Assembly: GCA_028694155.1 (NCBI GenBank)
Contig: JAQUTY010000004.1
Span: 13,773 to 77,772, forward strand
DNA from: Eubacteriales bacterium
Lineage (GTDB): Bacteria > Bacillota > Clostridia > Christensenellales > CAG-138
DNA length: 64,000 bases
Direction: 5' to 3'
In this document: positions 3 through 43,142 of the stretch, piece by piece
How the letters are laid out: each line of letters begins with the position of its first letter
Numbering within the stretch: the stretch's first letter is position 1
Program-made: the position numbers and the translations under genes
Notes under the pieces: model-generated
The model's database searches: none
What the model saw: only the letters and a program-made list of their open reading frames with translations
What the model was told of the DNA's origin: nothing

Positions 3-1019
3 ACACTTCAATCCTCAGGCGTTGTATCGGCTTCGGGAGAGGTGCATTTTGTTTCTCAGGTGGGACTTAAAAACTGGCACTTGGTCTATGGAATACCCAG
101 TGGGCCCAGAGTGGGAATGTCGCATCAGGGCGCAAAGAAGATGGCGGAATATGGTTACAGCTATGTGGATATTCTCAAGTACTACTATCCCAATGCCACG
201 CTTACAGACCCCGATGGCTCGGTTGTTCCGTCAACTGCGGACACGAGCATAGCAGGTGTTGTCAAGGCAATCTACGGCGAGATAGTGCTTGAGGGCAGCT
301 TCTATGGTTATGTGAATATCAGCTCGGCAAGCCTCATGAGCGCACCCGAATCCAATTCGGTCAATTTGTATCAATTATCGGCAAAAGCACCAATCATTGT
401 GCTTGACAAGGCTGGAGATTGGTACTATGTCAAGGATATTCAAAGCGGCTTGTTCGGCTACCTGTACATTTCCTATGTTGCGCCATTTACCAAATTCGTT
501 TATGTTAATGACGATGACACAAATTTCAGACAGGGCCCCGGCACGGAGTACGGTGTTATCACCGTGGTCAACACCTATGAGCAACTGGCGGTGTATGGCG
601 AGAGTGGAAACTGGTATCAAGCGGCTATACTGAATACAGGCACGGTGGGATACATCTACAAGAGCCTGTGCAATGCCATGTCCACAATCACTCCTCCCAC
701 TATTCCAACCCCGACCCCAACGGCAGTTCCTACCCCAACAGCGTCACCAACGCCCACGCCCACACCCACGCCGCGCCCAACCCCAACCATTGATTATGGG
801 ATTATTCCCCAAACATTGGGCGATGTGAACGGGGACGGAGTGGTCAACGCCGCCGATGCTTCGAGCATGTTGCGCTATGTGGTCAAGCTGGAGAGATACA
901 GCAATTTGCAGACAGAAGCAGGCGATCTCAATGCCGATGGATATGTAAATGCTGCCGATGCATCCAGAATACTTAGATATTTGGTGCATCTTGAGAGCCA
1001 GCTAGCCTCTAACGGCTGA
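3..1019 (+). CDS. SpoIID/LytB-like peptidoglycan-remodelling protein (C-terminal part) with SH3b-like repeats, Pro/Thr linker and type I dockerin; 5' end outside window
   Basis: Frame 3 is open from base 3 (the listed ORF just starts at an internal GTG at 42). RVGMSHQGAKKMAEYGYSYVDILKYYYPNATL matches the conserved C-terminal SpoIID/LytB motif. Two SH3b-like segments (GDWYYVKD, GNWYQAAI). PTPTPT linker. Duplicated Ca-binding dockerin loops GDVNGDGVVNAADASSMLRYVV and GDLNADGYVNAADASRILRYLV. Confidence 0.7.
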   Translation, partial: TLQSSGVVSASGEVHFVSQVGLKNWHLVYGIPSGPRVGMSHQGAKKMAEYGYSYVDILKYYYPNATLTDPDGSVVPSTADTSIAGVVKAIYGEIVLEGSFYGYVNISSASLMSAPESNSVNLYQLSAKAPIIVLDKAGDWYYVKDIQSGLFGYLYISYVAPFTKFVYVNDDDTNFRQGPGTEYGVITVVNTYEQLAVYGESGNWYQAAILNTGTVGYIYKSLCNAMSTITPPTIPTPTPTAVPTPTASPTPTPTPTPRPTPTIDYGIIPQTLGDVNGDGVVNAADASSMLRYVVKLERYSNLQTEAGDLNADGYVNAADASRILRYLVHLESQLASNG

Positions 1020-1064: not shown

Positions 1065-1093
1065 TGGTCAGAACAATAAACCTGTGCTATAAT
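1065..1093 (+). promoter_or_regulatory. Putative sigma-A promoter of the surface-protein/MotA-ExbB operon
   Basis: TGGTCA (1065-1070), 17-nt spacer, extended -10 TGcTATAAT (1085-1093), about 20 nt upstream of the GGAGG at 1111-1115. Confidence 0.45.
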
Positions 1094-1116
1094 TTACAAT
1101 ATTATTGAGTGGAGGT

Positions 1117-3594
1117 ATGGCGTTGCTTGGCAACCTTTCAAGACGAATATTGAGCTACTTTGTAGTGCTGTTGCTGACAACAGCCCTGCTGCTTCCGCTT
1201 GGGCTTGCCGCAGCCGAAGGAGAGGAGACAGGAACGCCATCGGAAGAACCTACAGCAGCTCCTACCGCCGCGCCTGCGCCTGACACCGAGCCTCAACAGA
1301 TTGACGGCACAAAAGGGATTAAGCTGATTTTGGGCTACGATGTGGCTCAAACGGACGGAGCAATTATCAAGGTTCGCACAGAATACGCCGAGATAAAAAT
1401 TAGCACGCTGCTGTCCCTTGCAAAGAACCAACAGTACACATATTCATATTTTTCAGCAGGCGTACCCGCCACAGAAAGCACTCAAGCTACCGACCCCTAT
1501 GTGGTAATGAAAACGGGCAAGGGCGTGACGATGCAGCAGCTATTGGACAGCAGCAATTTGAGTGGAGTAGTGTCCTCAAGCGCAAAGGTCTCCTTCAATG
1601 AGGGAAGCGCAATCGACCTTTCGTGGTTTTCGGGCGTAAAAAATACTTATTCAGAGCTATATAAATACATATTTGACAACGGATCGGGAAGCATCAGCTA
1701 CGATTCCGATGGCACATATAACGGGCGCAGCGACGTTCCCACTATACTTGCAATCTGGAGTGGGTACAATGCCTATTCTTTGGGGGCAGACGGGTCGGTA
1801 ATAAGCTCTAGCAACGCAAGTCAGGAGAAATATCTATCCGTGTTGCGTGGACAGGACGATCCCACGCATGGCGGTAGTATTCACGACTATTACGATATTA
1901 AATCCATCACCTTCATTCTGCCAAATCCGCCGACAGTTGGGACTCTGCTGCAACAAACTTGGGATATATCCGTTGGCAGCACTCGCACAATTCCGTCAAA
2001 CATCACGGAACATGACGTATACAATAAGCTCACAGAGGAATATCTAAAGAGCGTTATTGTGTGGACTAATGCGGATTCATCAGTTGCCTGGGTCAATGCG
2101 GACAGGCTTGTATCCGCCGATAAAGAAGGAACGACCACCATTATGGGTGCGATTGACGGTCAGATTAAGTACAGCATAACCGTGAACGTACATCCAAAAT
2201 ATGAGATTAGCTTTGCCACAGGCACAACGGACACCGTTTCATCAATGCCGCAGATGCTGCAAAAGGAGTACGGCGTAGACCTCACGCTGCCAACAACGAC
2301 ACCAACAAGAACCGATTATGCTTTTATCGGCTGGAATACTAAAGAGGACGGAACCGGCACAACCTATCAAGCAGGTGCGACATATAGCGACAATGCTTCC
2401 GTGACCCTGTACGCACAATGGAAGGTGCCGTCCTTCACAGTTTCCTTTGATGCTAACGAGCCGACAGGTCAGGAGGGAAAGGCGTCCGCAACCGCACCCA
2501 TCGAGGTAATTAAGGGTGTCAAGGCGTCCATTCCCGCCGCACCAACGCTTGCAGGCTACACCTTTGTATTTTGGAACACTAAGGCAGACGGTTCGGGAGC
2601 ATCCTATGTTGCAGGGTCGACGACGGAGATTTCGGACGGAGTGACGGTTCTGTACGCCTGCTGGAAAAGGACACAGTACACAATCACCTTTGACCCCAAC
2701 AATTCAAATGGCAAGATGATAATTGATGGGACGGAGCTGACCATATATAAAAAGGTAGTGGATTCGGGATTCCTTCTCGACACAACGCAATTTGTGTGCA
2801 AAAACGTTTCCACCAAAGCATATCCCAAGCACTGGCTGCTTGTTGGAACAACCAAGACCTATTTGAGTGCAAATCAGAGCCAAAGCTATCCGTCAGGCTC
2901 CGACAGGTACATCACTGTCACCAGCGACATAACGCTTCAGGCGGTGTGGACTACCACCCCAACGGCATCTCCAACCTCAACAATATCTGTAAGCTATAAT
3001 GCCAATGCCGGTTCGGATAAGGTATCAAACTTGCCCGGCACGCAGAAGGCGAACAAGGGCAGCACCATCACAATCAGCACACAGACTCCCACTCGTGCAG
3101 GGTATACGTTTGGCGGCTGGAATACAAAGGCTAACGGAACAGGGACAAATTACAGCGGAGGATCAAAGACATCGTCTTCTTTGACGCTTTATGCCAAGTG
3201 GACGCAGGCAACGCCCACCCCCGCGGCATCACCCACGCCCACGCCAACACCGGAACCAACTCCATCGCCAACGCCAGAGCCCACGCTCATTCCCGATGCG
3301 ATTATGGACGATGATGTCGTTGTCGAGCCTGTGGAGTCCGTCATGGAGCCTGTCATATTTATCGATAACGTAGGTGCGACCGATACGCCTAATCCCGATG
3401 AGGACGGCGATGGGGAACAGAGCGAACCTACGCCCACGCCTAATCCGTGGAATGAGCAAAATCCCGATGACCCGACAGATGCCGATGTGCCGTCCGGTTC
3501 GGATGCGACCTATGCAATCGTGGGCATAGCAAATGGCGTGCTGCTTGTTGCAGGCGGCTGCCTTGCGGTAATAAAGTTTAACCTACAACTATAA
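1117..3594 (+). CDS. Secreted, C-terminally membrane-anchored surface protein with Listeria-Bacteroides (InlB B-type) repeats
   Basis: Start ambiguous: ATG 1117 lies 1 nt after GGAGG 1111-1115; in-frame TTG 1105 and TTG 1123 are alternatives. Signal/TM segment ILSYFVVLLLTTALLLPLGLAAAEG. Three canonical repeats (YAFIGWNTKEDGTGTTY...LYAQW, YTFVFWNTKADGSGASY...LYACW, YTFGGWNTKANGTGTNY...LYAKW) plus one degenerate copy. PTPTPEPTPSPTPEP stalk and an acidic segment. One C-terminal TM helix YAIVGIANGVLLVAGGCLAVI followed only by KFNLQL. No LPXTG. Confidence 0.75.
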   Translation: MALLGNLSRRILSYFVVLLLTTALLLPLGLAAAEGEETGTPSEEPTAAPTAAPAPDTEPQQIDGTKGIKLILGYDVAQTDGAIIKVRTEYAEIKISTLLSLAKNQQYTYSYFSAGVPATESTQATDPYVVMKTGKGVTMQQLLDSSNLSGVVSSSAKVSFNEGSAIDLSWFSGVKNTYSELYKYIFDNGSGSISYDSDGTYNGRSDVPTILAIWSGYNAYSLGADGSVISSSNASQEKYLSVLRGQDDPTHGGSIHDYYDIKSITFILPNPPTVGTLLQQTWDISVGSTRTIPSNITEHDVYNKLTEEYLKSVIVWTNADSSVAWVNADRLVSADKEGTTTIMGAIDGQIKYSITVNVHPKYEISFATGTTDTVSSMPQMLQKEYGVDLTLPTTTPTRTDYAFIGWNTKEDGTGTTYQAGATYSDNASVTLYAQWKVPSFTVSFDANEPTGQEGKASATAPIEVIKGVKASIPAAPTLAGYTFVFWNTKADGSGASYVAGSTTEISDGVTVLYACWKRTQYTITFDPNNSNGKMIIDGTELTIYKKVVDSGFLLDTTQFVCKNVSTKAYPKHWLLVGTTKTYLSANQSQSYPSGSDRYITVTSDITLQAVWTTTPTASPTSTISVSYNANAGSDKVSNLPGTQKANKGSTITISTQTPTRAGYTFGGWNTKANGTGTNYSGGSKTSSSLTLYAKWTQATPTPAASPTPTPTPEPTPSPTPEPTLIPDAIMDDDVVVEPVESVMEPVIFIDNVGATDTPNPDEDGDGEQSEPTPTPNPWNEQNPDDPTDADVPSGSDATYAIVGIANGVLLVAGGCLAVIKFNLQL

Positions 3595-3605
3595 GGAGAG
3601 AGAAT

Positions 3606-4277
3606 ATGTTTTTTGTGGAAATTGCGGGAACGGGAATAGCCAATACAGAGACGGCGGCATCGGGGAGCTTTTTGACTGATGCGATGCACGCAATATCGTC
3701 CGCGATGAAGTACCCCGTCATCATCATTTTGATGCTGCTGTTCGCTGCTGCGCTGGTATGCGTTGGTTGGTTGATAGCAGAGTATTTCACCGAGCGCAAG
3801 CATTTGAATGCGAAGCTGCCCCAGCTCATTGATGACATTCGCGGCAGCGATGACGCCATAGAGGAGTGCATTGAGAGAAGCGGTCTTTTGAGACGGCAGA
3901 AGGCGGCATTGTTTGAGCTGACCATGCACCCCGACCTCACGCCCGATATGCGTGAAGCGTTGGCGGTAAGGCTGATTACCGAGGAGCAGACTCGCTACGA
4001 CAAGATTGTAAAAATTACTGATATAATTGTCAAGCTAGGGCCTGTGTTCGGACTGTTGGGAACACTGATACCCCTTGGCCCGGGCATCATCGCATTGGGA
4101 CAGGGCAACACCGCCTTGCTTTCTCAATCGCTGAACGTAGCGTTCGACACAACCATCATCGGACTTATCTGTGCGGCAATAGCACTTGTTGTCTCATCAA
4201 TTCGCAAGGCATGGTATCGCAACTATATGTCCATGCTGGAAACGGTCATGGAAGCAGTACTGGAGATGCAAAAATGA
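3606..4277 (+). CDS. MotA/TolQ/ExbB-family proton-channel protein
   Basis: SD GGAG (3595-3598) overlaps the previous stop; ATG 3606 is 11 nt after that stop. Three predicted TM helices. Family signature region LGPVFGLLGTLIPLGPGIIALGQGN...AFDTTIIGLICAAIALVV. Confidence 0.75.
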   Translation: MFFVEIAGTGIANTETAASGSFLTDAMHAISSAMKYPVIIILMLLFAAALVCVGWLIAEYFTERKHLNAKLPQLIDDIRGSDDAIEECIERSGLLRRQKAALFELTMHPDLTPDMREALAVRLITEEQTRYDKIVKITDIIVKLGPVFGLLGTLIPLGPGIIALGQGNTALLSQSLNVAFDTTIIGLICAAIALVVSSIRKAWYRNYMSMLETVMEAVLEMQK

Positions 4278-4588
4278 AGCTGAATCTCGGAACGAAAAAG
4301 ATTTTCGACCGTCAAAAGGACGATGAGGAGCCAAACCCCATGGAGGGAGTTGCCAACATGGCGGACGTCATGCTGGTGCTTGCCGTGGGCATCATGCTTG
4401 CGCTCATCATAAATTGGCGAGTTGATCTTACCAAGAACCCTGCTCAAGATCAGCAGTCGATTGGGGACACCAGCAACGGCTATATCACTCAGCAGGAGGA
4501 AGGCGAGCCAATAGGCATAGTCTACGAGCGTGAGGACGGCAGTCTGTACTATGTTGTGGACGAGCCATCAGAAACTCCAACTCCGTAA
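4274..4588 (+). CDS. DUF2149-like / ExbD-TolR-like single-pass membrane protein
   Basis: ATG 4274 overlaps the stop of the MotA/ExbB-like gene (ATGA 4274-4277); the listed ORF start 4211 lies inside that gene. 104 aa. EEPNPMEGVANMADVMLVLAVGIMLALIINW has one TM helix with an Asp at its cytoplasmic edge, a pattern I recognise from DUF2149 partners of MotA/ExbB homologues. Confidence 0.55.
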   Translation: MKLNLGTKKIFDRQKDDEEPNPMEGVANMADVMLVLAVGIMLALIINWRVDLTKNPAQDQQSIGDTSNGYITQQEEGEPIGIVYEREDGSLYYVVDEPSETPTP

Positions 4589-4608
4589 ATAGTATAATCC
4601 ATTGATAT

Positions 4609-4640
4609 GGCTTCCTTCCTTGCAGGGAAGCCTTTTTTTG
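4609..4640 (+). terminator. Rho-independent terminator
   Basis: GGCTTCC (4609-4615) pairs with GGAAGCC (4626-4632), followed by TTTTTTT (4633-4639), 21 nt after the stop at 4588. Confidence 0.65.
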
Positions 4641-4668: not shown

Positions 4669-4697
4669 TTGACTAATTGACAACAAGGTGATATTAT
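4669..4697 (+). promoter_or_regulatory. Putative sigma-A promoter for rpoBC
   Basis: TTGACT (4669-4674), 17-nt spacer, TGaTATTAT (4689-4697). About 150 nt upstream of the rpoB start. Confidence 0.5.
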
Positions 4698-4855
4698 TTC
4701 AAATTGCATTATGATGGCTTATCTGTGGTAATATGCCCAAAATTCCATTCACAAGGTACCTTTTGAGTGGGTAGGGCGACTATTATGCAAATAGGGTTTG
4801 AGTATGCAGTTTCAAAAATCGGATGCAAAAGCATCGGCAAGGAGAGCGTGACTGT

Positions 4856-7800
4856 ATGATGCATGATGTGAAGATGGGCAGAAAATCGAGGAAGAGCTTT
4901 TCTCGTATTTCTGAGGTTCTGAACATGCCGGATCTCATCGAGGTTCAAAAAAATTCCTACTACAGATTTTTAAGAGAGGATCTAAAGGACGTTTTCGACG
5001 ACATTTCTCCGATAATCGACTATTCGGGAAAACTGGTTCTTGAGTTTGTTGACTATCGCATTGATTTGGACAAGCCGAAATACTCCATTGAAGAGAGCAA
5101 GGAACGCGACGTAAACTATACGGCTCCGCTTCGTGTTACCGTACGCCTTATAAATAAGGAAACGGGCGAGGTCAAGCAGCAAGAGGTGTTCATGGGCGAT
5201 TTTCCGCTGATGACGCCGCAGGGAACCTTCATCATCAACGGCGCAGAGCGTGTCATTGTTTCGCAGCTCGTACGCTCCCCGGGTGCATATTTCTCCGTAG
5301 CGACCGACAAGATGGGCAAAGCCCTCTATTCAAGCCAAATTATTCCCAACCGTGGCGCATGGTTGGAATATGAAACAGACTCCAACGGCATACTGTACGT
5401 CAAGATTGATCGTCAGCGCAAGGTGTTTATCACCTCGTTGCTCCGTGCAATCGGGTACGGCACAAATTCCGAGATATCCGAGCTATTGGGCGATGATGAA
5501 CGGCTGGGTGCAACCTTGCAGAAGGATCCTAATCGTTCCGTTGTCGATGGTCTGATTGAAATATACAAGCGTCAACGTCCCGGCGAGCCGCCCACGGAGG
5601 AGAGCGCACGCTCCTTGCTGCATTCTCTGTTCTTCGACAACCGCTACGATTTGGCGCGTGTTGGACGCTATAAATATAATAAGAAGCTGTCCTTAAAGTC
5701 CCGTATTGCGGGCTGCATCTCCGATGAAAACGTAATCGACCCCACAACGGGCGAGATAATCATTGAAGAGGGTCAGCAAATTACCCGTACAATGGCAAAG
5801 GCAGCGCAGAATTGCGGTGTAAATGCCGTTACAGTGCGCACCGAGGACGGCCCAATCAAGGTTGTGGGCAACAACTGCTGCTCCGCCGAGGGTTTCTTGC
5901 CCTTTGCGCCCATTGACGCAGGTCTGAACGAGGACGTTCATCTTCCCACCTTAAAAGCCCTGCTCCCCGAAATGGAGAACATGACCGATGATGAGAAGAA
6001 GGAGTTTTTACATACTCATTATTACGATTTGATTCCACGTCACATCATTCCTGATGACATAGTGGCTTCCGTATCGTATCTAATCGGACTGGCTCACGGT
6101 TTGGGCAAGACCGATGACATAGACCATTTGGGCAATCGCCGCATTCGTTCGGTGGGCGAGCTGCTGCAAAACCAGATTCGTGTTGGACTCACCCGTTTGG
6201 AGCGTGTTGTGCGTGAGCGCATGGGCTTGCAGGATATGGACGTGGTCATGCCCTCCAACCTTATCAACATTCGACCCGTGACCGCTGCAATCAAGGAATT
6301 TTTCGGTTCCTCCCAGCTTTCACAGTTTATGGATCAGACCAATCCGCTGTCAGAGCTGACGCATAAGCGTCGTCTGTCCGCATTGGGACCGGGCGGTTTG
6401 AACCGTGACCGTGCAACCTTTGAAGTTCGTGACGTTCACTATTCGCACTATGGCAGAATGTGCCCCATTGAGACGCCTGAAGGCCCGAACATCGGTCTTA
6501 TTAACTCCCTGTCCACCTATGCTCGCATCAACGAGTATGGCTTCATTGAGGCACCCTACCGTGTCATTGACAAGGACCACAAGAAGGTTACAGACACTAT
6601 TGTGTATCTGACTGCGGACGAAGAAGACGGTGCGATTGTCGCACAGGCGAACGAGCCTATTGACCAAAAGACTAATTGGTTTGTAAAGGACCGTGTTATT
6701 GCCCGTCAGCTTGACCAGATTATCGAGGTTAAAAACACCGAGGTTGACTATTTGGACGTATCGCCCAAGCAGTTGGTTTCCGTTGCTACCGCAATGATTC
6801 CCTTCCTTGAGAACGATGACGCTAACCGTGCTCTAATGGGCTCGAACATGCAGCGTCAGGCGGTTCCGCTTCTAAAGCCCGAAGCACCGATTGTCGCAAC
6901 GGGAATGGAGCACAAGGCTGCTGCCGATTCGGGCATTGTCGTGCTGTCCAAGGAGGACGGCGTGGTGAGCTACGTTTCTGCCGACAAGATAATTATTGAG
7001 ACAAAGGCGGGAGTACCGCATGAGTATCATATGACAAAGTTCCAGCGTTCCAACCAAGGCACTTGCCTCAATCAGCGACCCGTGGTTGCAAAGGGCGAGG
7101 TTGTCAAGGTCGGAGACGTCATTGCAGACGGCGCATCGACTGACGAGGGCGAGATTGCTCTTGGAAGGAACATACTAATCGGCTTTATGACGTGGGAAGG
7201 CTATAACTACGAGGACGCAGTTCTGATTTCCGAGAAGCTGGTCAAGGAGGACGTTTACACCTCCATTCATATCGAGGAGCATGAGCTGGAAGCCCGTGAT
7301 ACAAAGCTGGGGCCCGAAGAAATTACAAGGGATATTCCCAACATTGGCGAGGACGCTCTTGCGCAGCTTGATGAATTTGGTATTATCCGTCCGGGCGCAG
7401 AGGTGCGTTCAGGCGACATTTTGGTCGGCAAAGTCACCCCCAAGGGCGAGACAGAGCTGACAGCCGAGGAGAGATTGCTCCGAGCCATCTTTGGCGAGAA
7501 GGCAAGAGACGTTCGTGATACTTCGCTGCGTGTACCGCATGGCGAGGGCGGCGTTGTTGTCGATGTGAAGGTATTCACTCGAGAGAAGAAGGACGAGCTA
7601 AGCCCCGGTGTAAACCAGATGGTTCGTGTCTATATCGCCCAAAAGAGAAAGATTTCCGTTGGCGATAAGATGGCGGGACGTCATGGTAACAAGGGTGTTA
7701 TTTCAAGAATACTGCCTGAGGAGGATATGCCCTTCCTGCCCGACGGTACGCCGTTGCAGATCGTGCTGAACCCCTTGGGTGTTCCGTCCCGTATGAATAT

Positions 7801-8644
7801 TGGACAGGTTTTGGAGCTGCACTTGGGCATGGCGTGCAAGGCACTGGGCATCAAGATAGCCACCCCGGTATTCGATGGCGCAACCGAGCAGGATATTAAG
7901 GACTTGTTGGTCGCGGCAGGATGTGACGAGGACGGCAAGACGGTGTTGTATGACGGCAGAACGGGCGAAGCGTTCGAAAACCGCATCTCCGTTGGCTATA
8001 TGTACTACTTGAAGCTGCACCATTTGGTTGACGACAAGATTCACGCTCGCTCCACAGGCCCGTACTCTCTTGTCACTCAGCAGCCTTTGGGCGGCAAGGC
8101 GCAGTTCGGCGGACAGCGTTTTGGTGAGATGGAAGTCTGGGCTCTTGAGGCTTATGGCGCAGCAAACACGCTGCAGGAGATACTCACGGTCAAGTCGGAC
8201 GATGTCGTTGGCAGAGTCAAGACCTATGAGAGCATAGTCAAGGGTGAGAACATTCCGCCCGCAGGTGTGCCCGAATCGTTCAAGGTGCTCATCAAGGAGC
8301 TGCAATCGCTGGCGTTGGACGTCAAGGTACTGTCCGATACTCGTGAGGAGATTCAGATTGCCGAGGATTATGACGAAGATGTACGTTCAATGGACATCAA
8401 CATTAACGGCATCGAGGACGGTCCTGAGCTGTTTGCGGACGATGATCATGATGATGAGGACGAGGAATTCGGCGACCTGTCGTTTGATGAAGATGAGGAC
8501 GAAGAGTCCGAAGATTTTGACGACGACTTGGGGTTGGATGACGTTGAGGAAGATGATCTCGATGAGGACGAGGACGAGGACGAGGACGAAATGCCTGATG
8601 AACTCGATCTGCCTCCGCTGACGGACGATTTGGACTTGGAATAA
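4856..8644 (+). CDS. rpoB: DNA-directed RNA polymerase subunit beta
   Basis: GGAGAG (4841-4846) lies 9 nt before ATG 4856; the listed start 4823 is an upstream alternative codon. Full-length beta homology, e.g. [68 protein letters not shown]. Unusually long acidic C-terminal tail. Confidence 0.97.
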
Positions 8645-29527: not shown

Positions 29528-31312
29528 ATGAGTCCATTAGTTGAAGGCATTCTTTTATTTTGTTTGGGGCTGGCATTCACGCTGTTTGGCATGAATCAAA
29601 TGAGCCATGGATTGGAGCGCATGTCTGGCGGCAAGCTCGAACGTGTTCTTGAATCTGCAACCACTACGAAGTCTAAATATCCCATAATTGGCAGACTCAA
29701 GGGAATGATTATGGGCTGCGGCATAACTGCGCTTGTACAGAGTTCATCGTCCACGACCGTAATGACGGTTGGCTTTGTCAACTCAGGCATGATGAAGCTG
29801 GAACAGGCAGTGGGCATAATCATGGGCGCAAATATCGGCACGACCATTACGCTGTGGATTCTTGCACTCACGGGACTAAGCTCTGATCTTTGGTATGTAG
29901 CCATCTTCAAGCCGTCCACGTTCTCGCCCATTCTCGCCATTATCGGCATTGCACTTTTGATATTCTCCAAGCGCACACGCAGAAGAGATATGGGTACTAC
30001 ACTTGTCAGCTTTGCGGTTTTGATGTATGGCATGACCCTGATGAGCGATACCTGCAGCCTGCTTGCGGGCAACCCCATCGTTTCAGATATTTTTGCAGCT
30101 CTTGAAAATCCCATTCTGGGCTTGCTTGTAGGCGCAATATTCACCGGCGTGATACAAGCCTCCGCCGCCGCACTTGGTATCGTTCAGGCTCTTGCAGCGA
30201 CAGGAGTAATCACCTATCGAGCAGCGATACCGATAATACTGGGCACAAATATCGGAACCTGTGTCACCGCCCTTATAAGCTGCATCGGCGCATCTAAAAA
30301 TGCAAAGCGCACCGCCATGGTTCATCTGTATTTCAACATCATCGGCAGCGTGCTTTTGATGAGTATATTCTATCTGTTGGACGCAGTATTCAATTTCGGC
30401 TTTATGGATACGGCACTTGCACCGGTCAACATCGCTTTGATTCACACGATATTCAACGTTGCTGCAACCATGCTCCTGCTGCCGCTTGGCGGCATACTTG
30501 CAAAGCTCGCCATCAAGACGGTTCGGGACAAGCACGATGGAAAGGAAGTTCCGGTTACTCTCTTGGACGAGCGTTTCATCGCCACTCCGGGGTTTGCGGT
30601 TGAGCAATGCTCCACAGTAACCGACAAAATGGCGCATCTTGCCAAAGGAACCATGTACAACGCTCTCAGCACGCTCAATAAATGGGACGATGCTATGGCA
30701 AAGACCATCATTGAGGACGAGGATCACCTTGACCGCTATGAGGACAAGCTGGGAACATATCTTGTCAAATTGTCTGAACAGTCCCTAAATGAGGAGGAGA
30801 GCAAGCGCATCAACCAACTGCTGCATGTCATTGGAGACTTTGAGCGCATCGGCGACCATGCGCTGAACATACTTGATTCCGCCCGTGAGATGAAAGAGAA
30901 GAACCTTGTCTTTTCCGATGAGGCAAAGACCGAGATGAAGGTCATTATAGATGCTTTAGAGGAGATACTTGAGCTGTCCTTCAAGTCGTTCTTTGACAAC
31001 GATATGGAAGCTGCCAACCGTGTTGAGCCGCTTGAGGACGTGATTGACGTCTTGCAGCAGGAGCTTCGCACAAGACACATCGCAAGACTGCAAAAAGGCG
31101 ACTGCACCATTCAGCTTGGCTTTGTGTACAACGACCTTCTTTCGAACATTGAGCGTGTTTCAGACCATTGCTCCAACATCGCAGTAGACCTCATCGAGGT
31201 CACACAGGCGAAGTTTGACACCCACAAATATCTGAACGCCCTGAAGCTCTCGCCCACGGAACAGTACAGCGCATATGTCAAGGAGTATACCGATAAATAT
31301 ATGCTCGGCTAA
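29528..31312 (+). CDS. Na/Pi cotransporter family protein with C-terminal PhoU-like domains
   Basis: GGGAGGAAAG SD. Multi-TM N-half with duplicated NaPi-II motifs (QSSSSTTVMTVGFV, QASAAALGIVQAL). Helical C-half with PhoU-like repeats (IGDFERIGDHALNI, IERVSDHCSNIA). Confidence 0.8.
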   Translation: MSPLVEGILLFCLGLAFTLFGMNQMSHGLERMSGGKLERVLESATTTKSKYPIIGRLKGMIMGCGITALVQSSSSTTVMTVGFVNSGMMKLEQAVGIIMGANIGTTITLWILALTGLSSDLWYVAIFKPSTFSPILAIIGIALLIFSKRTRRRDMGTTLVSFAVLMYGMTLMSDTCSLLAGNPIVSDIFAALENPILGLLVGAIFTGVIQASAAALGIVQALAATGVITYRAAIPIILGTNIGTCVTALISCIGASKNAKRTAMVHLYFNIIGSVLLMSIFYLLDAVFNFGFMDTALAPVNIALIHTIFNVAATMLLLPLGGILAKLAIKTVRDKHDGKEVPVTLLDERFIATPGFAVEQCSTVTDKMAHLAKGTMYNALSTLNKWDDAMAKTIIEDEDHLDRYEDKLGTYLVKLSEQSLNEEESKRINQLLHVIGDFERIGDHALNILDSAREMKEKNLVFSDEAKTEMKVIIDALEEILELSFKSFFDNDMEAANRVEPLEDVIDVLQQELRTRHIARLQKGDCTIQLGFVYNDLLSNIERVSDHCSNIAVDLIEVTQAKFDTHKYLNALKLSPTEQYSAYVKEYTDKYMLG

Positions 31313-32064
31313 TCCGACCAACGGGCAAGACGCTCGCGCATCCACCCGTAAACATCCATAGAATAAACTTTTTTGAGGTTGTCCTGCGAAAGGACGGCCT
31401 CAGTTTTTCCCAAATCCACAATTCTGCCCCTATCCAACAGCAGCGACTGTGAGCCGTAGCATTTTGCCAAATCAAGATCGTGCACCACCGATATGACAGC
31501 ACGGTTTGGTTCCTTTACCCAGTTGCAAATAAGCTCGAACACCTGCTTTTGATAAACCAAATCGAGATGGTTTGTGGGTTCATCCAGTATCAAAAGTTGG
31601 GGATTCTGGGCAAACACCTGCGCCAAGAAGGTGCGCTGAAGCTCGCCGCCCGATAGCGTTAAAAGGGACTGGTTCTCAATTTCCGTTAGCCCGGTTATCT
31701 CAAGAGCACGCCTAACGCTCGTGTCGTCATCACACCCAGAGGAGAAAAAGCCCTTTTTGTGCGCATATCTGCCAAGCCGCACTACCTCGCCAACCGTGAA
31801 CGAATAACCAACTCTCTGTCCCTGCGCAAGTACGCCTATGCGCCGTGCAAGCTCAATGGGCTTGTACACGGAGATGTCCTTACCCTCAAATAGAACGGTG
31901 CCAGTATAAGGAATGCCTTTGGATATAGCGTTGACAATGGTGGATTTTCCTGCGCCGTTAGGCCCAACTAGCATAAGCCATTCGCCTCTGGCAACATCAA
32001 AACTCACGTCATTAACTATGGTGGAAGAGCCGTATCGCACGGTGAGATTTCTAACTTCAAGCAT
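31309..32064 (-). CDS. btuD: ABC transporter ATP-binding protein (corrinoid/iron-chelate type)
   Basis: Walker A GPNGAGKST, signature LSGGELQR, Walker B LLILDEPTNHLD. Last gene of the B12-riboswitch operon. Its stop overlaps the convergent Na/Pi stop by 4 nt. Confidence 0.7.
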   Translation of the reverse strand: MLEVRNLTVRYGSSTIVNDVSFDVARGEWLMLVGPNGAGKSTIVNAISKGIPYTGTVLFEGKDISVYKPIELARRIGVLAQGQRVGYSFTVGEVVRLGRYAHKKGFFSSGCDDDTSVRRALEITGLTEIENQSLLTLSGGELQRTFLAQVFAQNPQLLILDEPTNHLDLVYQKQVFELICNWVKEPNRAVISVVHDLDLAKCYGSQSLLLDRGRIVDLGKTEAVLSQDNLKKVYSMDVYGWMRERLARWSD

Positions 32065-33055
32065 GGCGTGACCTCACGGATCTAAAGAATATAAACACAA
32101 ACACCACCGCACCAATAAGCGAGGTCACAACGCCAACAGGTAATTCCAAGGGAGATACAATTACCCTTGCTACAAGGTCGGCAAGCATCAAAAAACATGC
32201 GCCGCAATACATCGAGGCGGCAAGGAGCTTCTTGTGGTTTGGGCCCAAAATGAGCCGCACCATGTGGGGTATCACCAAGCCTACAAAGGCTATTGTGCCG
32301 CCTACCGATACACACACGCCGATGAGAACGGACACAGCAATGAGTATAATCAATCGCTCACGGCGCACGTTCACGCCGATGTGCCGTGCATTGTCCTCAC
32401 CGATGGCAAAGGCGTTCAGCTCTGATGCTCTTGACAGAATTACCGCCGCACAAAGGGCAAGCGTCACAAGCAGCACCAGTGCGTTTGTATAGCTGCTGCC
32501 CGACAGAGTACCCATCGTCCAGCGTGTAATATCACGAAGGCGGTCGCTGGAAAAATACATCATCAGGCTTATCATGCTTGAGGCAAACATGGAAAAGATG
32601 ATGCCGATTAGGATTATCGTGTTGGTTGCAAGCGAGCAATCGAGCTTGTAGGCAAGGGACAGAATGATGATGAGCGACAGAAAAGCAAACAGCACAGCCA
32701 TTACCATCGTGCCTGCAAAGGGGAGAGAGGGGATTGAGATTGAAAGTGTAATGGCAAGCACGGCACCAAGCGATGCGCCTGAGCTTACGCCAAGCGTTGA
32801 GCCGTCCGCCAAGGGATTTTTCAGCAATCCCTGCATGGCAGCACCGCAAAGTGACAGACTTGCGCCGGATAGTGCCACGCATAGCACACGAGGCAGACGC
32901 ACATTCAAAATGATTGAGCTTGACAGCAGCTCATCCGGCGGCACACTCACACTGCCCAAGCACACGCACAGCAACATTGTAACCAGCGTGAACACGGACA
33001 ATGCGATGTATGTCAGAACGGATAGCCCCTCTTTTTTTCCACCCTTATGCTCCAT
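32057..33055 (-). CDS. btuC: FecCD-family ABC permease (corrinoid/iron-chelate type)
   Basis: About 9 TM helices with typical FecCD motifs (RLPRVL, GASLSLCGAAMQGLLKNPLADGSTLGVSSGASLGA). Start ambiguous: ATG 33055, 33067 or 33085, none with a clear SD. Confidence 0.7.
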   Translation of the reverse strand: MEHKGGKKEGLSVLTYIALSVFTLVTMLLCVCLGSVSVPPDELLSSSIILNVRLPRVLCVALSGASLSLCGAAMQGLLKNPLADGSTLGVSSGASLGAVLAITLSISIPSLPFAGTMVMAVLFAFLSLIIILSLAYKLDCSLATNTIILIGIIFSMFASSMISLMMYFSSDRLRDITRWTMGTLSGSSYTNALVLLVTLALCAAVILSRASELNAFAIGEDNARHIGVNVRRERLIILIAVSVLIGVCVSVGGTIAFVGLVIPHMVRLILGPNHKKLLAASMYCGACFLMLADLVARVIVSPLELPVGVVTSLIGAVVFVFIFFRSVRSRHA

Positions 33056-33941
33056 AGACAAACTCATACAGCGACTCAAACGCATTTACCAGTCTGGGAG
33101 AGGGACGGCTTATCTCGTTGGAATCGGCATTGAATACCTTGCCGTTTTTAATTGCCGTCATATCCTGCCAACCAGCACGAGCCATAATTTCATCAACAGG
33201 GGTTGCCCCTTCGCCGTAGTACATCGCAATGGTGACAATATAGTCCGGATTGCGTGCAATGACCTGCTCCTGCGATATTTCCGCCCAGCCGACTACGTCC
33301 GAAAAGGCGTTTTTCAGCCCCATAAGCGAAGCAAGCTCGTCCATAAACGTTCCGCTTCCTGCTGTCCAAAGCCCATACTCAAGCGGTGAGACTTCAAAAT
33401 AGATTGTCTCCGTGCCATCGCCCTTACTGTCGATATTCTCGAAGCTGGATTTCATGCTCTTGCACAATGCGTCTGCCTGAGCGGACTTGCCAACCAGCGA
33501 ACCGATGAGCGCAATCGAGCGATATACGCCGTCAATATCCTGCGCATCTGAAACAACAACCGCAATACCTGCGTTACTTAGTGCCTCGACCTGTTCAACG
33601 GTCTGCCCCATTTTAGTCATTATGACCACCTGCGGCTCAAGGCCGATTATCTGCTCAAGATTTGTTTCATAGCCCGATTGCACGGAAGGAACGGACTCAA
33701 CCGCCTCAGGATAGTCGCAATACTCGCCACGACCAACCAGCGTATCGCCTGCACCAAGCGCAAACAGAATTTCGCAATCAGAGGCGGACAGCGCAACAAT
33801 GCGTGTTGCAGGCGCATCAAGCGAGATTACACGGTCGGTCATGTCTGTCACGGTATAACCGCTTTGCGCAGGTTCATTCTTACCGCATCCGCACAGCAAC
33901 AGCGCACAGAGCAGCAGGACAATAATGATGTTTTTCTTCAT
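33045..33941 (-). CDS. btuF: Corrinoid/iron-chelate ABC substrate-binding lipoprotein (BtuF-like)
   Basis: Lipoprotein signal MKKNIIIVLLLCALLLCGCG. Cluster-A periplasmic-binding fold motifs (RIVALSASDCEILFALGAGDTLVG, PDYIV). First gene downstream of the cobalamin riboswitch. Confidence 0.7.
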   Translation of the reverse strand: MKKNIIIVLLLCALLLCGCGKNEPAQSGYTVTDMTDRVISLDAPATRIVALSASDCEILFALGAGDTLVGRGEYCDYPEAVESVPSVQSGYETNLEQIIGLEPQVVIMTKMGQTVEQVEALSNAGIAVVVSDAQDIDGVYRSIALIGSLVGKSAQADALCKSMKSSFENIDSKGDGTETIYFEVSPLEYGLWTAGSGTFMDELASLMGLKNAFSDVVGWAEISQEQVIARNPDYIVTIAMYYGEGATPVDEIMARAGWQDMTAIKNGKVFNADSNEISRPSPRLVNAFESLYEFVYGA

Positions 33942-38267: not shown

Positions 38268-39101
38268 TTATTTTTCCCAGTCGTAGCTCTCCTGCAGACC
38301 CTCAAAGAAGTTGTAGATACAGTGCATAGGGCAGGTCTCCACACAGGCACCGCAACGAGTACACTTGTCCGGATCAATCTCGGCAACGCCGTTGACCACA
38401 TGAATCGCATCGGAGGGACAGGACTTTTCGCAGCGGTGACAGCCTATACAGGCGACCTTGCACTGAAGCCGTGCGGTCTTGCCCGTTTCGGTGTTGCGAC
38501 ATTGCACAACGACCGTGCGATTCTTAGGCACCAGCGCAATAATGCTGCGTGGACAGGCGTCCACACACGCACCGCAGCCCGCACAGTAGTCGTCATTTAT
38601 CTTGGCTACTCCGTTTTCGATGGTGATGCAGTTGAACTTGCAAACGTTGCAGCAGTCACCGTAACCAATGCAGGCAAAGCTGCACGCTTTAGGGCCTCCC
38701 GAAAGGGCGGCAGCGGCTCTGCACGATTGCACCCCAGTGTATTGATAACGCTCTGAGGCGTTGTCACAGGTACCATTGCAGCGCACACGTCCGACCTTAC
38801 GCTCACCAACATCGGCGGTCACACCCATGATTGCACTTACGGCATCGGCAGTCTTTTTACCACCGGCTGTGCAGCCGGTAACGGGGGCTTTTCCTTCCAC
38901 GACCGCTTTTGCAAACCCATCACAACCGGGATAGCCGCAAGCACCGCAGTTTGCACCTGCAAGAGCAGCACGAACGGCAGAAACACGCTCATCCTCTTTG
39001 ACCTCGAACTTTTTGCCCACTAAGCCCAACAGGATGCCCAAAACAAGACCCAGAACGCCCAAAACGCCCAGTGAACAAAGAATTATTACCCATGGTTCCA
39101 T
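38268..39101 (-). CDS. rnfB: Rnf complex subunit B (polyferredoxin)
   Basis: AAGGAGG before ATG 39101; the listed start 39155 overlaps rnfA. N-terminal TM, CGACGYPGC cluster motif, several CxxCxxCxxxCP ferredoxin motifs. Confidence 0.88.
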   Translation of the reverse strand: MEPWVIILCSLGVLGVLGLVLGILLGLVGKKFEVKEDERVSAVRAALAGANCGACGYPGCDGFAKAVVEGKAPVTGCTAGGKKTADAVSAIMGVTADVGERKVGRVRCNGTCDNASERYQYTGVQSCRAAAALSGGPKACSFACIGYGDCCNVCKFNCITIENGVAKINDDYCAGCGACVDACPRSIIALVPKNRTVVVQCRNTETGKTARLQCKVACIGCHRCEKSCPSDAIHVVNGVAEIDPDKCTRCGACVETCPMHCIYNFFEGLQESYDWEK

Positions 39102-39114
39102 GCTTTTGACCTCC

Positions 39115-39723
39115 TTAAATATTGTTGAACAGTCCCGAAAATCCCATAAACGCAATGCTCATAAGTCCTGCAATGATGAGGGACAGAGGGAAGCCCTTGA
39201 GAGATTTAGGAACGTTGACGCTGCCTTCGATGCGCTCACGAATACCGGCCATCAAAACGATGGCAAGCAGGAAGCCCAGCGCACCAAACACGCCGTTTAG
39301 AACCGAGAACAGCAGGTCGTGTCCTGCATTCATGTTGAGAATGCACACGCCAAGCACCGCACAGTTGGTGGTGATGAGGGGCAGGTAGATGCCCAAAGCA
39401 CCATAAAGGGAGGGACTCGATTTCTTCAAAAACATCTCAACGCATTGCACCAGTGCAGCAATAACCAGAATAAATGAGATGGTTTGCAGGTATCCAAGAC
39501 CCAGCGGCACGAGCACCCACGAGTTAATCATCCATGTAAAGAGGCTTGCAAGAGCCATAACGAAGGTCACCGCCATGCCCATGCCAAACGCCGTTTCCAC
39601 CTTGCTTGATACTCCAAGGAACGGACAGCAGCCCAGGAACTTTGAGAAGATGAAGTTGTTGGTCAGCACGCAGCTCACCATGAACAACAGAATATCCAGA
39701 AGGTTTGAATTAGCTATCTGCAT
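39115..39723 (-). CDS. rnfA: Rnf complex subunit A
   Basis: Six-TM RnfA/NqrE-family sequence (NNFIFSKFLGCCPFLGVS, LPLITTNCAVLG). Confidence 0.9.
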   Translation of the reverse strand: MQIANSNLLDILLFMVSCVLTNNFIFSKFLGCCPFLGVSSKVETAFGMGMAVTFVMALASLFTWMINSWVLVPLGLGYLQTISFILVIAALVQCVEMFLKKSSPSLYGALGIYLPLITTNCAVLGVCILNMNAGHDLLFSVLNGVFGALGFLLAIVLMAGIRERIEGSVNVPKSLKGFPLSLIIAGLMSIAFMGFSGLFNNI

Positions 39724-40336
39724 TCTTCTTGACCTCCTTTCCCTTGCTGGTTAGCAGATTGACAATCCACAGAACCAGCCCAAAGGCGATGAATCCGCCG
39801 GCCGGCATGATGAACAGCAGCATCGGCTCGTAGCCCGAACCGAGCAGATTGACACCAAAGACTGAACCGTTGCCGATAAGCTCACGAATTGCACCTATCA
39901 GGGTGATTGCCAATGTAAAGCCCATGCCCATTCCAAGCCCGTCCATAGCGGAGAGCAGCACGCCATTTTTGGAGGCATATGCTTCTGCTCGCGCCAGAAT
40001 GATGCAGTTGACCACGATGAGGGGGATAAAGATGCCCAGACTCTGATATAGCGAGGGCAAGAATGCCTGCATCAGCATCTGCACCATGGTAACAAAGGTA
40101 CAGATTATGACGATGAACGCAGGAATGCGAATCTTATCGGGAATGAAGTTTCTAAGCAGGGATATGACAATGTTGCTTCCCAATAGCACGAAGGTTGCCG
40201 CAAGCCCCATGCCTATGCCGTTAATGGCCGTGGTTGTGATTGCCATGGTGGGGCAGGTGCCAAGCACTAGGCGGAGAGTGGGGTTTTCGGGCAGGATACC
40301 GTTAAAAAATACCCGTCCGCAGCTTTTCTTTTCCAT
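39710..40336 (-). CDS. rnfE: Rnf complex subunit E
   Basis: RnfE/NqrD-family sequence (ENPTLRLVLGTCPTMAITT, FIPLIVVNCIILARAEAYA). Confidence 0.9.
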   Translation of the reverse strand: MEKKSCGRVFFNGILPENPTLRLVLGTCPTMAITTTAINGIGMGLAATFVLLGSNIVISLLRNFIPDKIRIPAFIVIICTFVTMVQMLMQAFLPSLYQSLGIFIPLIVVNCIILARAEAYASKNGVLLSAMDGLGMGMGFTLAITLIGAIRELIGNGSVFGVNLLGSGYEPMLLFIMPAGGFIAFGLVLWIVNLLTSKGKEVKKNADS

Positions 40337-40338
40337 AC

Positions 40339-40869
40339 TTAATTCCCTCCTTCCATATAGCCAATTAGCTCCTCAAGCGTGCTGTTGACACAGTTTGTAA
40401 CGGCACGAGAGGTGATGGTCGCACTTGAGATTGCGCCTATATCGCCGCCGTCTTTGGCAATGGCAATTTTGCCCGTCTTACCGATGAATTGCTCCCAAAA
40501 CCAAGGCTCCTTTGCGCGTGCGCCAAGACTGGCGGTTTCCGAGAAGTTCTCACCGCCAATGCTCACTCCCGTGATGACACCGTCAAGATTGGCACCAACC
40601 GTGACTTCAATGTCGCCGCCGTACCCTTTGGTGATGCGTGCGGTGCAGTAGCCGATGATATTTCCGTCGGCGTCCAGCCCCTTGTAAAAGTCGCCGTCCT
40701 GTTCAAAGGACACGGCATCGGGCAGAACAGTTTGCCTTGCCGAATTTTGAGCTGCAATGGTCTGCTCGGCTATCGGCTTTGCGGTGATGACGTACACGCC
40801 GCCCAGCGCAAGCCCTGCAACAGCAGCAATTAAGAGGAGCTTTAGCCCCAACTTAGCTATCTCACGCAT
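40339..40869 (-). CDS. rnfG: Rnf complex subunit G (FMN-binding)
   Basis: N-terminal TM plus FMN_bind domain with the flavinylation motif region AISSATITSRAV. Confidence 0.85.
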   Translation of the reverse strand: MREIAKLGLKLLLIAAVAGLALGGVYVITAKPIAEQTIAAQNSARQTVLPDAVSFEQDGDFYKGLDADGNIIGYCTARITKGYGGDIEVTVGANLDGVITGVSIGGENFSETASLGARAKEPWFWEQFIGKTGKIAIAKDGGDIGAISSATITSRAVTNCVNSTLEELIGYMEGGN

Positions 40870-41785
40870 GGTTTTTCACCTCCCCGTACACTCTGGGTCG
40901 CATGAAGCGATCAATAAGCGGAGTAAAGATATTCATTATCAAAATGGCGTAGGTCACACCCTCAGGATAGGTTCCAAACCTGCGAATGACGGCGACCAAA
41001 AGACCGCAGCCCACGCCGAATACGAGCTGTCCCTTGCGTGTCATGGGATTTGTCACATAGTCGGTAGCCATAAAGACCGCACCAAAGAGAACACCTCCGG
41101 ACAGAACAGCACGAAGCGGATCATAACCGAATATCCATGCAAAGAGCATGAACGAGGCAATGAACGAAAGGGGCACATGCCATGAGACGACCCTGGTTAC
41201 AAGAAGCAGCACAAGACCCAACAAAATGGCAATCTTGCAGACCTCGCCCATGCTTCCGGGTATATTGCCAATGAATAGGTCAAGCGTGGTTGCTGGCACA
41301 ACAGATGCAGACGAAACAGCACCCGAGGACGCAAGCGGTGTTGCCTGCGAAACGCCGTCAAGGACAAAGTTGTTCATTCGGGCAGGCCATGACACCAACA
41401 GGATTGCTCTTGCGGTCAGGGCAGGGTTCAAAAAATTGCAGCCGATACCGCCAAACAACTGCTTGACAAGCAGAATGGCGACCGCACTTCCCACAACCAC
41501 CATCCACCAAGAAGCGGTAGGGGGGAGGTTCAGCGCAAGAATCAGACCGGTTACTACTGCACTAAGGTCGCTCACGGTTAGGCGGCGTTTGGCAATAAGC
41601 TCCGAGAGCAGCTCGAACACGACACACGACGCAACCGAAATAGCACACAGCAGAAGAACATTCAGTCCGAATATCCATGTTGCAGCGATAACGCAGGGCA
41701 TGAGTGCGGCAATGACGACCGCCATGATGCCTTGGGTGGACACAGGTGCTTTGATATGCGGTGCGGGAGAAACAAGTAATTTCAT
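40862..41785 (-). CDS. rnfD: Rnf complex subunit D
   Basis: AGAGGTGA SD before ATG 41785. MKLLVSPAPHI start and multi-TM RnfD/NqrB-type sequence (GGIGCNFLNPAL, MATDYVTNP). Confidence 0.9.
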   Translation of the reverse strand: MKLLVSPAPHIKAPVSTQGIMAVVIAALMPCVIAATWIFGLNVLLLCAISVASCVVFELLSELIAKRRLTVSDLSAVVTGLILALNLPPTASWWMVVVGSAVAILLVKQLFGGIGCNFLNPALTARAILLVSWPARMNNFVLDGVSQATPLASSGAVSSASVVPATTLDLFIGNIPGSMGEVCKIAILLGLVLLLVTRVVSWHVPLSFIASFMLFAWIFGYDPLRAVLSGGVLFGAVFMATDYVTNPMTRKGQLVFGVGCGLLVAVIRRFGTYPEGVTYAILIMNIFTPLIDRFMRPRVYGEVKNHA

Positions 41786-41790
41786 AACTG

Positions 41791-43110: not shown

Positions 43111-43142
43111 AAAGGTAATCACCCCCAATAAAATTTCATTTT

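Follow-up and report, generated by a model that had tools for sequence, protein, structure and literature searches.

What would a bacterium without an outer membrane do with a motor of the Ton type? The question is raised by three tightly packed genes, here called A, B and C, at 1117-4588 of the window, our term for the whole 64,000-nucleotide stretch of contig JAQUTY010000004.1 (Eubacteriales bacterium) analysed here. An initial annotation proposed that A, a surface protein with a lone C-terminal transmembrane (TM) helix, could be the energised partner of a motor formed by B, a channel protein of the MotA/TolQ/ExbB family, and C, a small DUF2149 protein, in a surface adhesion or capture device.

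We find that a module of three genes is widespread in Clostridia, and that A-B-C of the window is a pared-down, divergent version of it. The gene just upstream of B relatives encodes a partner protein for which we coined the name family X, and it is very likely that A or X, B and C form one functional unit. As to what the unit does, the best reading is a motor of the Ton kind that is driven by ions and acts on a capture protein spanning the wall; its chances are about evenly balanced. The central idea of the initial annotation is therefore upheld in part: the unit of three genes is well supported, while the adhesion purpose assigned to it is not.

Layout of the A-B-C locus

All three genes run in the same direction, on the + strand, with a promoter-like site ahead of them and a terminator-like site behind.

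1117-3594, + strand: gene A (open reading frame, ORF), an 825-residue secreted, C-terminally membrane-anchored surface protein, divergent member of family X
3606-4277, + strand: gene B, a 223-residue three-TM channel protein of the MotA/TolQ/ExbB family (Pfam PF01618)
4274-4588, + strand: gene C, a 104-residue single-pass DUF2149 protein (Pfam PF09919)
1065-1093, + strand: promoter-like site, TGGTCA, 17-nucleotide spacer and TG-TATAAT (pattern scan, 10/12 with extended -10 TG; consensus match only)
4609-4640, + strand: terminator-like hairpin, GGCTTCCTT...AGGGAAGCC followed by T7 (pattern scan, 9 pairs, 5 GC; consensus match only)

The coordinates and junctions given initially for the three ORFs were confirmed. 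At the A-to-B junction the gap is 11 nucleotides, and AAGGAG, the Shine-Dalgarno sequence of B, overlaps the TAA stop of A 7 nucleotides ahead of the B ATG. At the B-to-C junction the start of C overlaps the TGA stop of B as ATGA. Both flanking signals were recovered by the pattern scan, as consensus matches. The initially annotated start of A at 1117 opens a confirmed ORF, but GGAGG (1111-1115) lies just 1 nucleotide ahead of this ATG, and an alternative TTG start at 1123 has a normal 7-nucleotide spacing from it. Public gene calls give A as 823 or 825 residues.

A three-gene module conserved in Clostridia

Eighty independent genome loci with B relatives were collected and their ORFs were called by our own script. 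Nearly all are Clostridia (Oscillospiraceae, Lachnospiraceae, Anaerovoracaceae, Christensenellaceae, Peptococcaceae, Eubacteriaceae and Thermacetogenium). C is the next gene after B in 84 of 85 loci, and Pfam DUF2149 is matched by the neighbours in other loci too.

The initial annotation had asked whether MotA_ExbB and DUF2149 pairs are recurrently preceded by a secreted protein ending in a lone TM helix, and the survey answers that they are. With a hidden Markov model (HMM) of the last ~60 residues of family X, hereafter the anchor HMM, an anchor-bearing ORF was found to end just upstream of B on the same strand in 69 of the 80 loci, at a median gap of 9 nucleotides. The remaining 11 include seven with less than 1.3 kb of upstream sequence, two with a displaced anchor gene and one (L005, of the same type as A) in which the anchor was recognized by eye. 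An anchored secreted protein thus precedes B in about 70 of the 73 loci that can be judged. A simple heuristic asks for a signal-like start and a lone helix at the C-terminus: both features occur in 47 of the 59 complete genes upstream of B, whereas the same loci contain 7 such cases among 345 other genes of 300 residues or more (Fisher p = 2e-42).

The reverse test gave the same answer. Five X proteins on long contigs were found via a profile of their N-terminal domain (N-domain) and immunoglobulin (Ig) domain, and all five are directly followed by a MotA_ExbB gene and a DUF2149-sized gene, four of these small genes matching Pfam DUF2149. The anchor is equally specific: the anchor HMM matches only the B-adjacent gene (64 loci) and two displaced copies, and none of the about 40 N-domain paralogues encoded at other places in these loci carries it.

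The loci of two near-identical X proteins display the module with and without its motor genes. In one (P0203; L089 1226-7810) the order is binding protein, X (423 residues, anchored), MotA_ExbB, DUF2149, a 1426-residue protein and an S-layer homology (SLH) protein. In the other (P0144, on many contigs; L085-L087 10001-11080) X ends before the anchor, and B, C and the gene for the 1426-residue protein are lost as one block. This strain variant keeps a soluble, anchorless X beside the binding protein.

In three species with an A-type trio the flanks all differ. Because the A-type trio sits in unrelated flanks in these species, the trio itself is the conserved unit. That the three genes work as one is well supported, since the Pfam and synteny tests both give the predicted result.

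Proteins B and C

The profile check of B and C came out as the initial annotation expected, both proteins scoring above the Pfam cut-offs. B matches MotA_ExbB at E = 4.8e-12 (46.2 bits vs a cut-off of 22.9), and C matches DUF2149 at E = 3.7e-11 (43.6 bits vs 27.1).

Three hydrophobic segments in B correspond to three TM helices, as in ExbB and TolQ, and B shares the rest of that layout too, with its large cytoplasmic loop behind TM1 and its conserved polar residues in TM2 and TM3. A profile of the B family (residues 17-208) aligns over the full length to E. coli ExbB (5sv0, residues 21-222) at E = 4.6e-6, and also matches MotA and TolQ structures, more weakly. Its 'protein A' matches are a repeat artefact and were discarded. 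The TM2-TM3 core is near-invariant (GLLGTLIPLGPGIIALGQG.T ... AFDTT; window 4038-4166): TM2 with the following loop reads GLLGTLIPLGPGIIALGQG[DN]T, TM3 contains AFDTT, and GLLGTLIPLGPG is likewise near-invariant. A search found 2506 homologues, with 57-100% identity to B among the 120 matches listed. B scores far below every named NCBIfam equivalog, the best being PomA with 16 bits (cut-off 341) and PRK10414 with 13 bits (cut-off 402). Judged by its sequence, B is not orthologous to any named ExbB, TolQ, MotA or PomA.

C consists of a short basic cytoplasmic N-terminus, one TM helix (N[LM]AD.ML; window 4349-4414) and a short outside part. Within NMADVMLVLAVG of the helix, Asp31 (codon GAC, 4364-4366) is invariant across 24 aligned sequences and at least 90% conserved across 79. 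The initial annotation had likened C to both ExbD and DUF2149 proteins; DUF2149 and an ExbD-like layout stand, but membership of the ExbD family does not. Because no sequence relation to ExbD, TolR or MotB is detectable, the comparison is one of layout, not of family.

Near the end of the outside part, C carries a conserved hairpin-like extracellular motif, G.VY.D..G..Y (window 4514-4558). The motif resembles the hairpin of a single beta-propeller blade. Designed 'Cake' propellers are the sole structure matches of C, and we set them aside as beta-hairpin noise. One speculation is that strand addition might join this hairpin to the conserved motif that family X carries near the membrane (NWRVYEMSE.A.EL, or M..DAEQL).

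We take B and C to be functional because they are conserved: B relatives in the fetched loci keep 50-76% identity over 80 species, the TM2/TM3 core is invariant and so is Asp31.

Family X and protein A

Family X members usually have 400-800 residues, with an N-terminal signal-like segment and a conserved start, TDTLT[IV]KVGYFG. An N-domain of ~200 residues is followed by an Ig domain and a disordered spacer; then come a conserved near-membrane motif, a single TM helix at the C-terminal end and, behind it, a few mostly basic tail residues. The spacer (40-210 residues, median 87, rich in G/S/D/A/T/E) is disordered and long enough to span the wall. In the anchor, a Gly and an aromatic-basic pair are conserved and the helix is otherwise variable. 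In L038 and L011 the X protein has a second, partial N-domain ahead of the full copy, and non-anchored N-domain paralogues are scattered over many loci.

Protein A follows this plan with an insert.

1117-1215, + strand: signal peptide as read from the translation, residues 1-33 (n-region with RR, a hydrophobic core, and AAA before E)
1300-1956, + strand: N-domain, residues ~62-280, homologous to the family X N-domain (HMM, hhalign)
1966-2190, + strand: Ig-like (Big_2-type) domain, residues ~284-358, aligning to the Big_2 region of family X
2194-3186, + strand: insert of the A-type clade, with Flg_new repeats at residues 360-432, 437-513 and 618-690 and a divergent ~95-residue domain at 517-611 (Pfam, repeat HMM)
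3199-3510, + strand: low-complexity spacer, residues 695-798, a PT-rich stalk and then an acidic segment (composition)
3511-3591, + strand: C-terminal anchor, TM helix YAIVGIANGVLLVAGGCLAVI (residues 799-819) and the six-residue tail KFNLQL (hydrophobic window score 2.11)

The initial description of A as a secreted protein with a single C-terminal TM helix and six residues behind it is borne out. That of its repeats needs amending: three are clear Flg_new repeats (Pfam E = 4.6e-34, above the curated cut-off, in 3 stretches), but the further stretch, between the second and third, is the divergent ~95-residue domain. Pfam Big_2 stays below threshold on A, and neither TonB_C nor TolA is matched in Pfam. 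The spacer contains P 23, T 15, D 14 and E 9 per 105 residues. Sortase anchoring was considered and rejected for A and for family X, as A has no LPXTG motif and matches no C-terminal sorting-domain model in NCBIfam, and an LPXTG-like string occurs in 1 of 56 family X members.

Several profile comparisons tie A to the family. A full-length HMM of 53 partner proteins, from which A and its two nearest relatives were excluded, matches A at E = 3.3e-22. An HMM of the N-domain only, likewise built without A, gives 7.9e-8 for A, 2.8e-17 for L005 and 8.6e-12 for L006, and hhalign joins A-type and X N-domains with 99.1% probability (E = 7.8e-19, 187 columns). The A anchor shares the Gly-then-aromatic/basic pattern of family X. 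By these profile comparisons A is a rare, divergent member of family X, and the N-domain, called unassigned at first and without a Pfam match on A or family X, belongs to a conserved and previously unrecognised extracellular domain family. L005 and L006 share the A-type layout (repeat HMM), and the A-type clade is rare, with 4 representative clusters in a library of 1.84 billion. A word-indexed search with residues 60-370 of A gave no matches, although A is present as P0241 in another library; the family is reached by profile only.

The fold of the N-domain was approached with AlphaFold2 (AF2) models. That of a typical X N-domain has high confidence (predicted local distance difference test, pLDDT, 90.3; predicted template-modelling score 0.87). 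Among its best Foldseek matches are the molybdenum-cofactor domain of SorA (probability 0.98, template-modelling score 0.43-0.45), PruR (probability 0.84-0.90, score about 0.5) and the molybdenum fragment of nitrate reductase; scores overall are 0.43-0.53, and the E values are weak (~0.02). PruR, which belongs to the SUOX family, binds pterins in the periplasm (PMC11194511). Lipoprotein paralogues of ~168 residues, present in 19 loci, match Pfam Oxidored_molyb above the cut-off, and hhalign joins these Oxidored_molyb-positive paralogues to the X N-domain with a probability of 86%, the alignment covering 68 columns. The model of A itself (residues 60-370, pLDDT 74.5) is weaker and gives Ig matches only (LigA and Big_2-CBM56), so that a SUOX/PruR-like fold of A rests on homology. 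The X N-domain has no invariant Cys, and therefore a binding role is likelier than catalysis; from its residues, it is probably not a molybdoenzyme.

Importer genes and clues to the ligand

In canonical loci the module keeps company, on its upstream side, with genes of a chelate-type ATP-binding cassette (ABC) importer (FecCD/ABC_tran/Peripla_BP_2). The neighbours were counted by clustering and Pfam.

FecCD permease near the module: 38 loci
ABC ATPase near the module: 38 loci
Peripla_BP_2 binding protein: 36 loci, directly upstream of X in 26
Crp/Fnr-type regulator: 21 loci
~168-residue lipoprotein with Oxidored_molyb: 19 loci

The initial emphasis on adhesion finds no support in this comparison. 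Because the conserved parts of family X are the N-domain, with its putative SUOX/PruR-like fold, and the Ig domain, and a FecCD importer is typical, ligand capture and uptake are favoured over adhesion.

The importer genes say little of the ligand. The nearest structures to the Peripla_BP_2 binding protein come without a named ligand, and its NCBIfam matches to IsdE (the best), ferrichrome and BtuF models all lie far below cut-off. A gene for an XdhC/CoxI-type molybdenum-cofactor insertion chaperone was seen near the module in about 7 loci (e.g., L012 16787-17818 and L091 99-1133). Together with the putative SUOX/PruR-like fold, this neighbour raises the idea of a pterin or molybdenum-cofactor ligand, but lineage-specific synteny may explain it instead. 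At the edge of one canonical locus lies a raiA RNA motif (Rfam RF03072, 130 bits; L020 20092-20258, - strand), probably unrelated to the module.

Proposed mechanism

By analogy with known motors, B/C is probably ion-driven, and X or A has roughly an even chance of being its mechanically energised partner. In the mechanism that we propose, B and C would build an ion-driven motor of the 5:2 type within the cytoplasmic membrane, and X would dock on it by its tail helix, as TonB and TolA do by theirs, but with the helix running out-to-in. The motor would then pull or twist the disordered spacer of X, whereby the distal binding domain, in or beyond the thick wall, could capture or release its ligand. 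In canonical loci the ligand would probably be a metal chelate or a planar cofactor, to be handed to the ABC importer. The A-type clade would have retained the same motor and anchor, with the Flg_new repeats lengthening the stalk.

A wider hypothesis, which we put forward tentatively and hold to be rather doubtful, is that monoderm Clostridia own an equivalent of the Ton system. An ion-driven motor of ExbB-like and DUF2149 proteins would pull a wall-spanning, tail-anchored receptor with a SUOX/PruR-like binding domain. The pull would extract a planar cofactor or metal chelate in short supply, such as haem, a pterin, a compound of the molybdenum-cofactor type or the like, or pass it to a FecCD importer, and the trio of the window would be a stripped-down offshoot. 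The HmuU/HmuV pair of Bacteroidota would be explained likewise.

A number of points weigh against the Ton-like capture motor. The contact between tail helix and B/C, the stoichiometry and the ion dependence are inferred by analogy. To our knowledge, no 5:2 motor has a partner helix oriented opposite to that of TonB or TolA, as the X helix runs. Operon adjacency can reflect mere co-regulation. C has no Pfam ExbD match at E ≤ 0.1, and no ExbD, TolR or MotB chain was found among solved structures at E ≤ 10, with either the single sequence or a 24-sequence profile; its outside part is only ~55 residues long. The anchor HMM matches A weakly (E = 0.0045, vs 2e-5 for L006). No riboswitch was found upstream of seven canonical loci with Rfam (just a tRNA and a raiA RNA elsewhere), and no intergenic Fur-box-like site in 1.2 Mb of loci.

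The window itself adds to this list. Its A-B-C is adjoined neither by any of the canonical neighbours counted above nor by the giant wall protein described below, and the giant protein is likewise absent in two A-type relatives. A complete FecCD-type importer (Peripla_BP_2 lipoprotein, FecCD permease and ABC ATPase) lies at 31309-33941 on the - strand. It could be the counterpart of the adjacent importer in canonical loci, and nothing links the two. Because it is 27 kb away and not adjoining, an uptake role for the trio of the window is extrapolated from relatives.

Alternative explanations

The alternative that survives best is a shared operon without mechanical coupling, in which X is a membrane-tethered extra receptor for the ABC importer and B/C acts on the importer, the giant protein or the wall. 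It would account for the Peripla_BP_2 gene directly upstream of X in 26 loci, for the binding protein that stays beside X in the variant without anchor and B/C, and for the common anchorless N-domain paralogues. The literature on HmuU/HmuV, the sole named pair, assigns other partners too. The anchor type, however, is confined to the B-adjacent gene and is lost jointly with B/C; three A-type species keep the trio by itself, with neither importer nor giant protein; and the median gap from X to B is just 9 nucleotides. We consider this explanation unlikely, though less so than those that follow.

Another neighbour of the module suggests that B/C could be a surface-display or wall-translocation motor that threads or retains very large wall proteins or adhesins, with X as an adaptor. 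GldLM serves type IX secretion and SiiAB serves the SiiE adhesin.

Giant secreted protein family, any position: 53 of 80 loci

The giant protein lies less than 4 kb downstream of B in 42 of 61 judgeable loci, and the 26 members scanned have the domains GLUG (16), Flg_new_2 (11), SLH (7), fn3 (5), dockerin (3) and Shr-like_HID (2). Flg_new repeats are found in A itself as well. On the other side, about a third of the judgeable loci have no giant protein nearby, the window and its two A-type relatives have none, and a display motor leaves the FecCD importers and the putative ligand-binding fold of X unexplained. Such a motor is distinctly improbable.

The Shr-like haemoglobin-interacting domain in two of the 26 giant neighbours (best E = 1.8e-16), and Oxidored_molyb in one, are hints of a substrate that form no pattern.

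The module could also be a device for adhesion or motility, whose motor shifts A, as an adhesin, along the envelope or through it and so brings about gliding-like movement or regulated attachment. Adhesins often contain Flg_new repeats (the InlB B-repeat type) and Ig domains, and a dockerin-bearing protein is encoded upstream of A. Yet the Flg_new repeats are limited to the rare A-type clade, what is conserved in the module is the putatively SUOX-like N-domain together with the importer link, and no other motility genes were seen nearby, which leaves this device with a very small chance.

That the trio is a vestigial, non-functional Ton remnant is hardly credible: a 2025 survey (PMC12204202) calls the Ton systems of Clostridia and other monoderms 'likely non-functional', but all three ORFs are intact, the B TM cores are near-invariant over 80 species, the Asp of C is invariant, gene order and translational coupling are kept, and the locus is not a decayed Ton locus because no TonB or TonB-dependent receptor is present.

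Surroundings of the trio in the window

The genes flanking A-B-C are unrelated to it: upstream lies a SpoIID/SH3_3/dockerin gene, downstream rpoB and rpoC. The upstream gene (window 42-1019, + strand; in full in L001 5300-7414) encodes a SpoIID domain, SH3_3 domains, a PT-rich linker and a type I dockerin, an odd pairing of a sporulation domain of the lytic-transglycosylase type with a cellulosome docking module. The gene next after the terminator-like site is rpoB (4823-8644), with a promoter-like site of its own at 4669-4697. RpoB ends in a nearly all-acidic C-terminal tail of ~90 residues (window 8400-8644, ending DLDLE), which is unusual among bacterial beta subunits.

Farther away, at 38268-43128 on the - strand, a cluster with RnfC, RnfD and RnfB-like Pfam hits encodes an Rnf-type ion-translocating ferredoxin:NAD oxidoreductase, which probably generates an H+ or Na+ gradient usable by the putative B/C motor.

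Significance

Ion-driven 5:2 motors are understood as passing the energy of the inner membrane to an outer membrane or a flagellum. The trio described here is found in dozens of Clostridial species, many from gut or rumen, and is usually wired to a chelate-type ABC importer, which suggests that energy-dependent surface capture also exists without an outer membrane. We found no paper describing the A/X-B-C module in monoderms or Clostridia, and to that extent the initial claim of a device undescribed in Gram-positive bacteria holds. The module suggests a role, open to testing, for DUF2149 and likewise for HmuU and HmuV, which are uncharacterised. It is also a simple three-gene system in which the coupling of a 5:2 motor to an oppositely oriented partner helix could be studied.

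Comparison with known systems

The wall-spanning haem relays of Gram-positive bacteria, of the Isd/NEAT and Shr kinds, resemble the module in that a thick wall is bridged by receptors at the surface, which supply a Peripla_BP_2/FecCD importer. Family X, unlike them, has no NEAT domains or sortase signal, and Isd relays are passive and motorless.

With PruR and other SUOX-fold binders the likeness would be one of fold: the X N-domain model matches SorA, PruR and the molybdenum domain of nitrate reductase, and the small paralogues match Oxidored_molyb. In X, by contrast, the domain shares one protein with an Ig domain, a spacer and an anchor in the membrane, next to a motor pair, and the Foldseek E values are weak.

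TolQRA, MotAB, GldLM and ZorAB share with the module a MotA/ExbB-type channel protein and a single-pass, Asp-bearing partner. Near the module, in contrast, there are no flagellar, Tol-Pal or type IX genes, and B has three TM helices against four in MotA. Zorya defence was rejected because no PADLOC model matches A, B or C at E ≤ 0.01.

The closest named pair belongs to the hmuYRSTUV haem operon of Bacteroidota, where DUF2149 is known in the literature as HmuV, beside the MotA/TolQ/ExbB protein HmuU. Their role there is assumed, either powering HmuR or inner-membrane transport with HmuT. As in Clostridia, a MotA_ExbB and DUF2149 pair is adjacent in an operon, here for metal-tetrapyrrole uptake. 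Hmu loci also hold HmuY, the TonB-dependent receptor HmuR, the CobN-like dechelatase HmuS and the putative permease HmuT. The Clostridial loci examined have none of these and instead have family X, the ABC importer and the giant wall protein. No link to CobN/HmuS was found in any examined locus, and the window, too, has no CobN, TonB-dependent receptor or HmuY family.

The nearest overall parallel is the Ton system; ExbBD-TonB, TolQRA and MotAB are 5:2 ion-driven motors (review, PMC9389320; structures, PMC12215075). The Clostridial module departs from it in several ways. There is no outer membrane, no TonB-dependent receptor and no TonB_C domain, and no TonB, TonB-dependent receptor, CobN or flagellar gene was seen in the Pfam-labelled loci. 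A has a cleavable signal peptide, and the anchor of X or A is C-terminal and runs out-to-in, whereas TonB and TolA are anchored N-terminally. The distal part of X has a putative SUOX/PruR-like fold plus Ig, and C is of DUF2149, not of the ExbD family. What the two have in common is the architecture. B is a three-TM protein of the MotA/TolQ/ExbB family, and its small single-pass partner C has a conserved membrane Asp. The third component, family X, has a single TM helix, and its distal binding domain is set off by a long flexible spacer, which in A (residues 695-798) is rich in P, T, D and E. Finally, the module, like the Ton system, is linked to nutrient import of the metal-chelate type, through its FecCD and Peripla_BP_2 neighbours.

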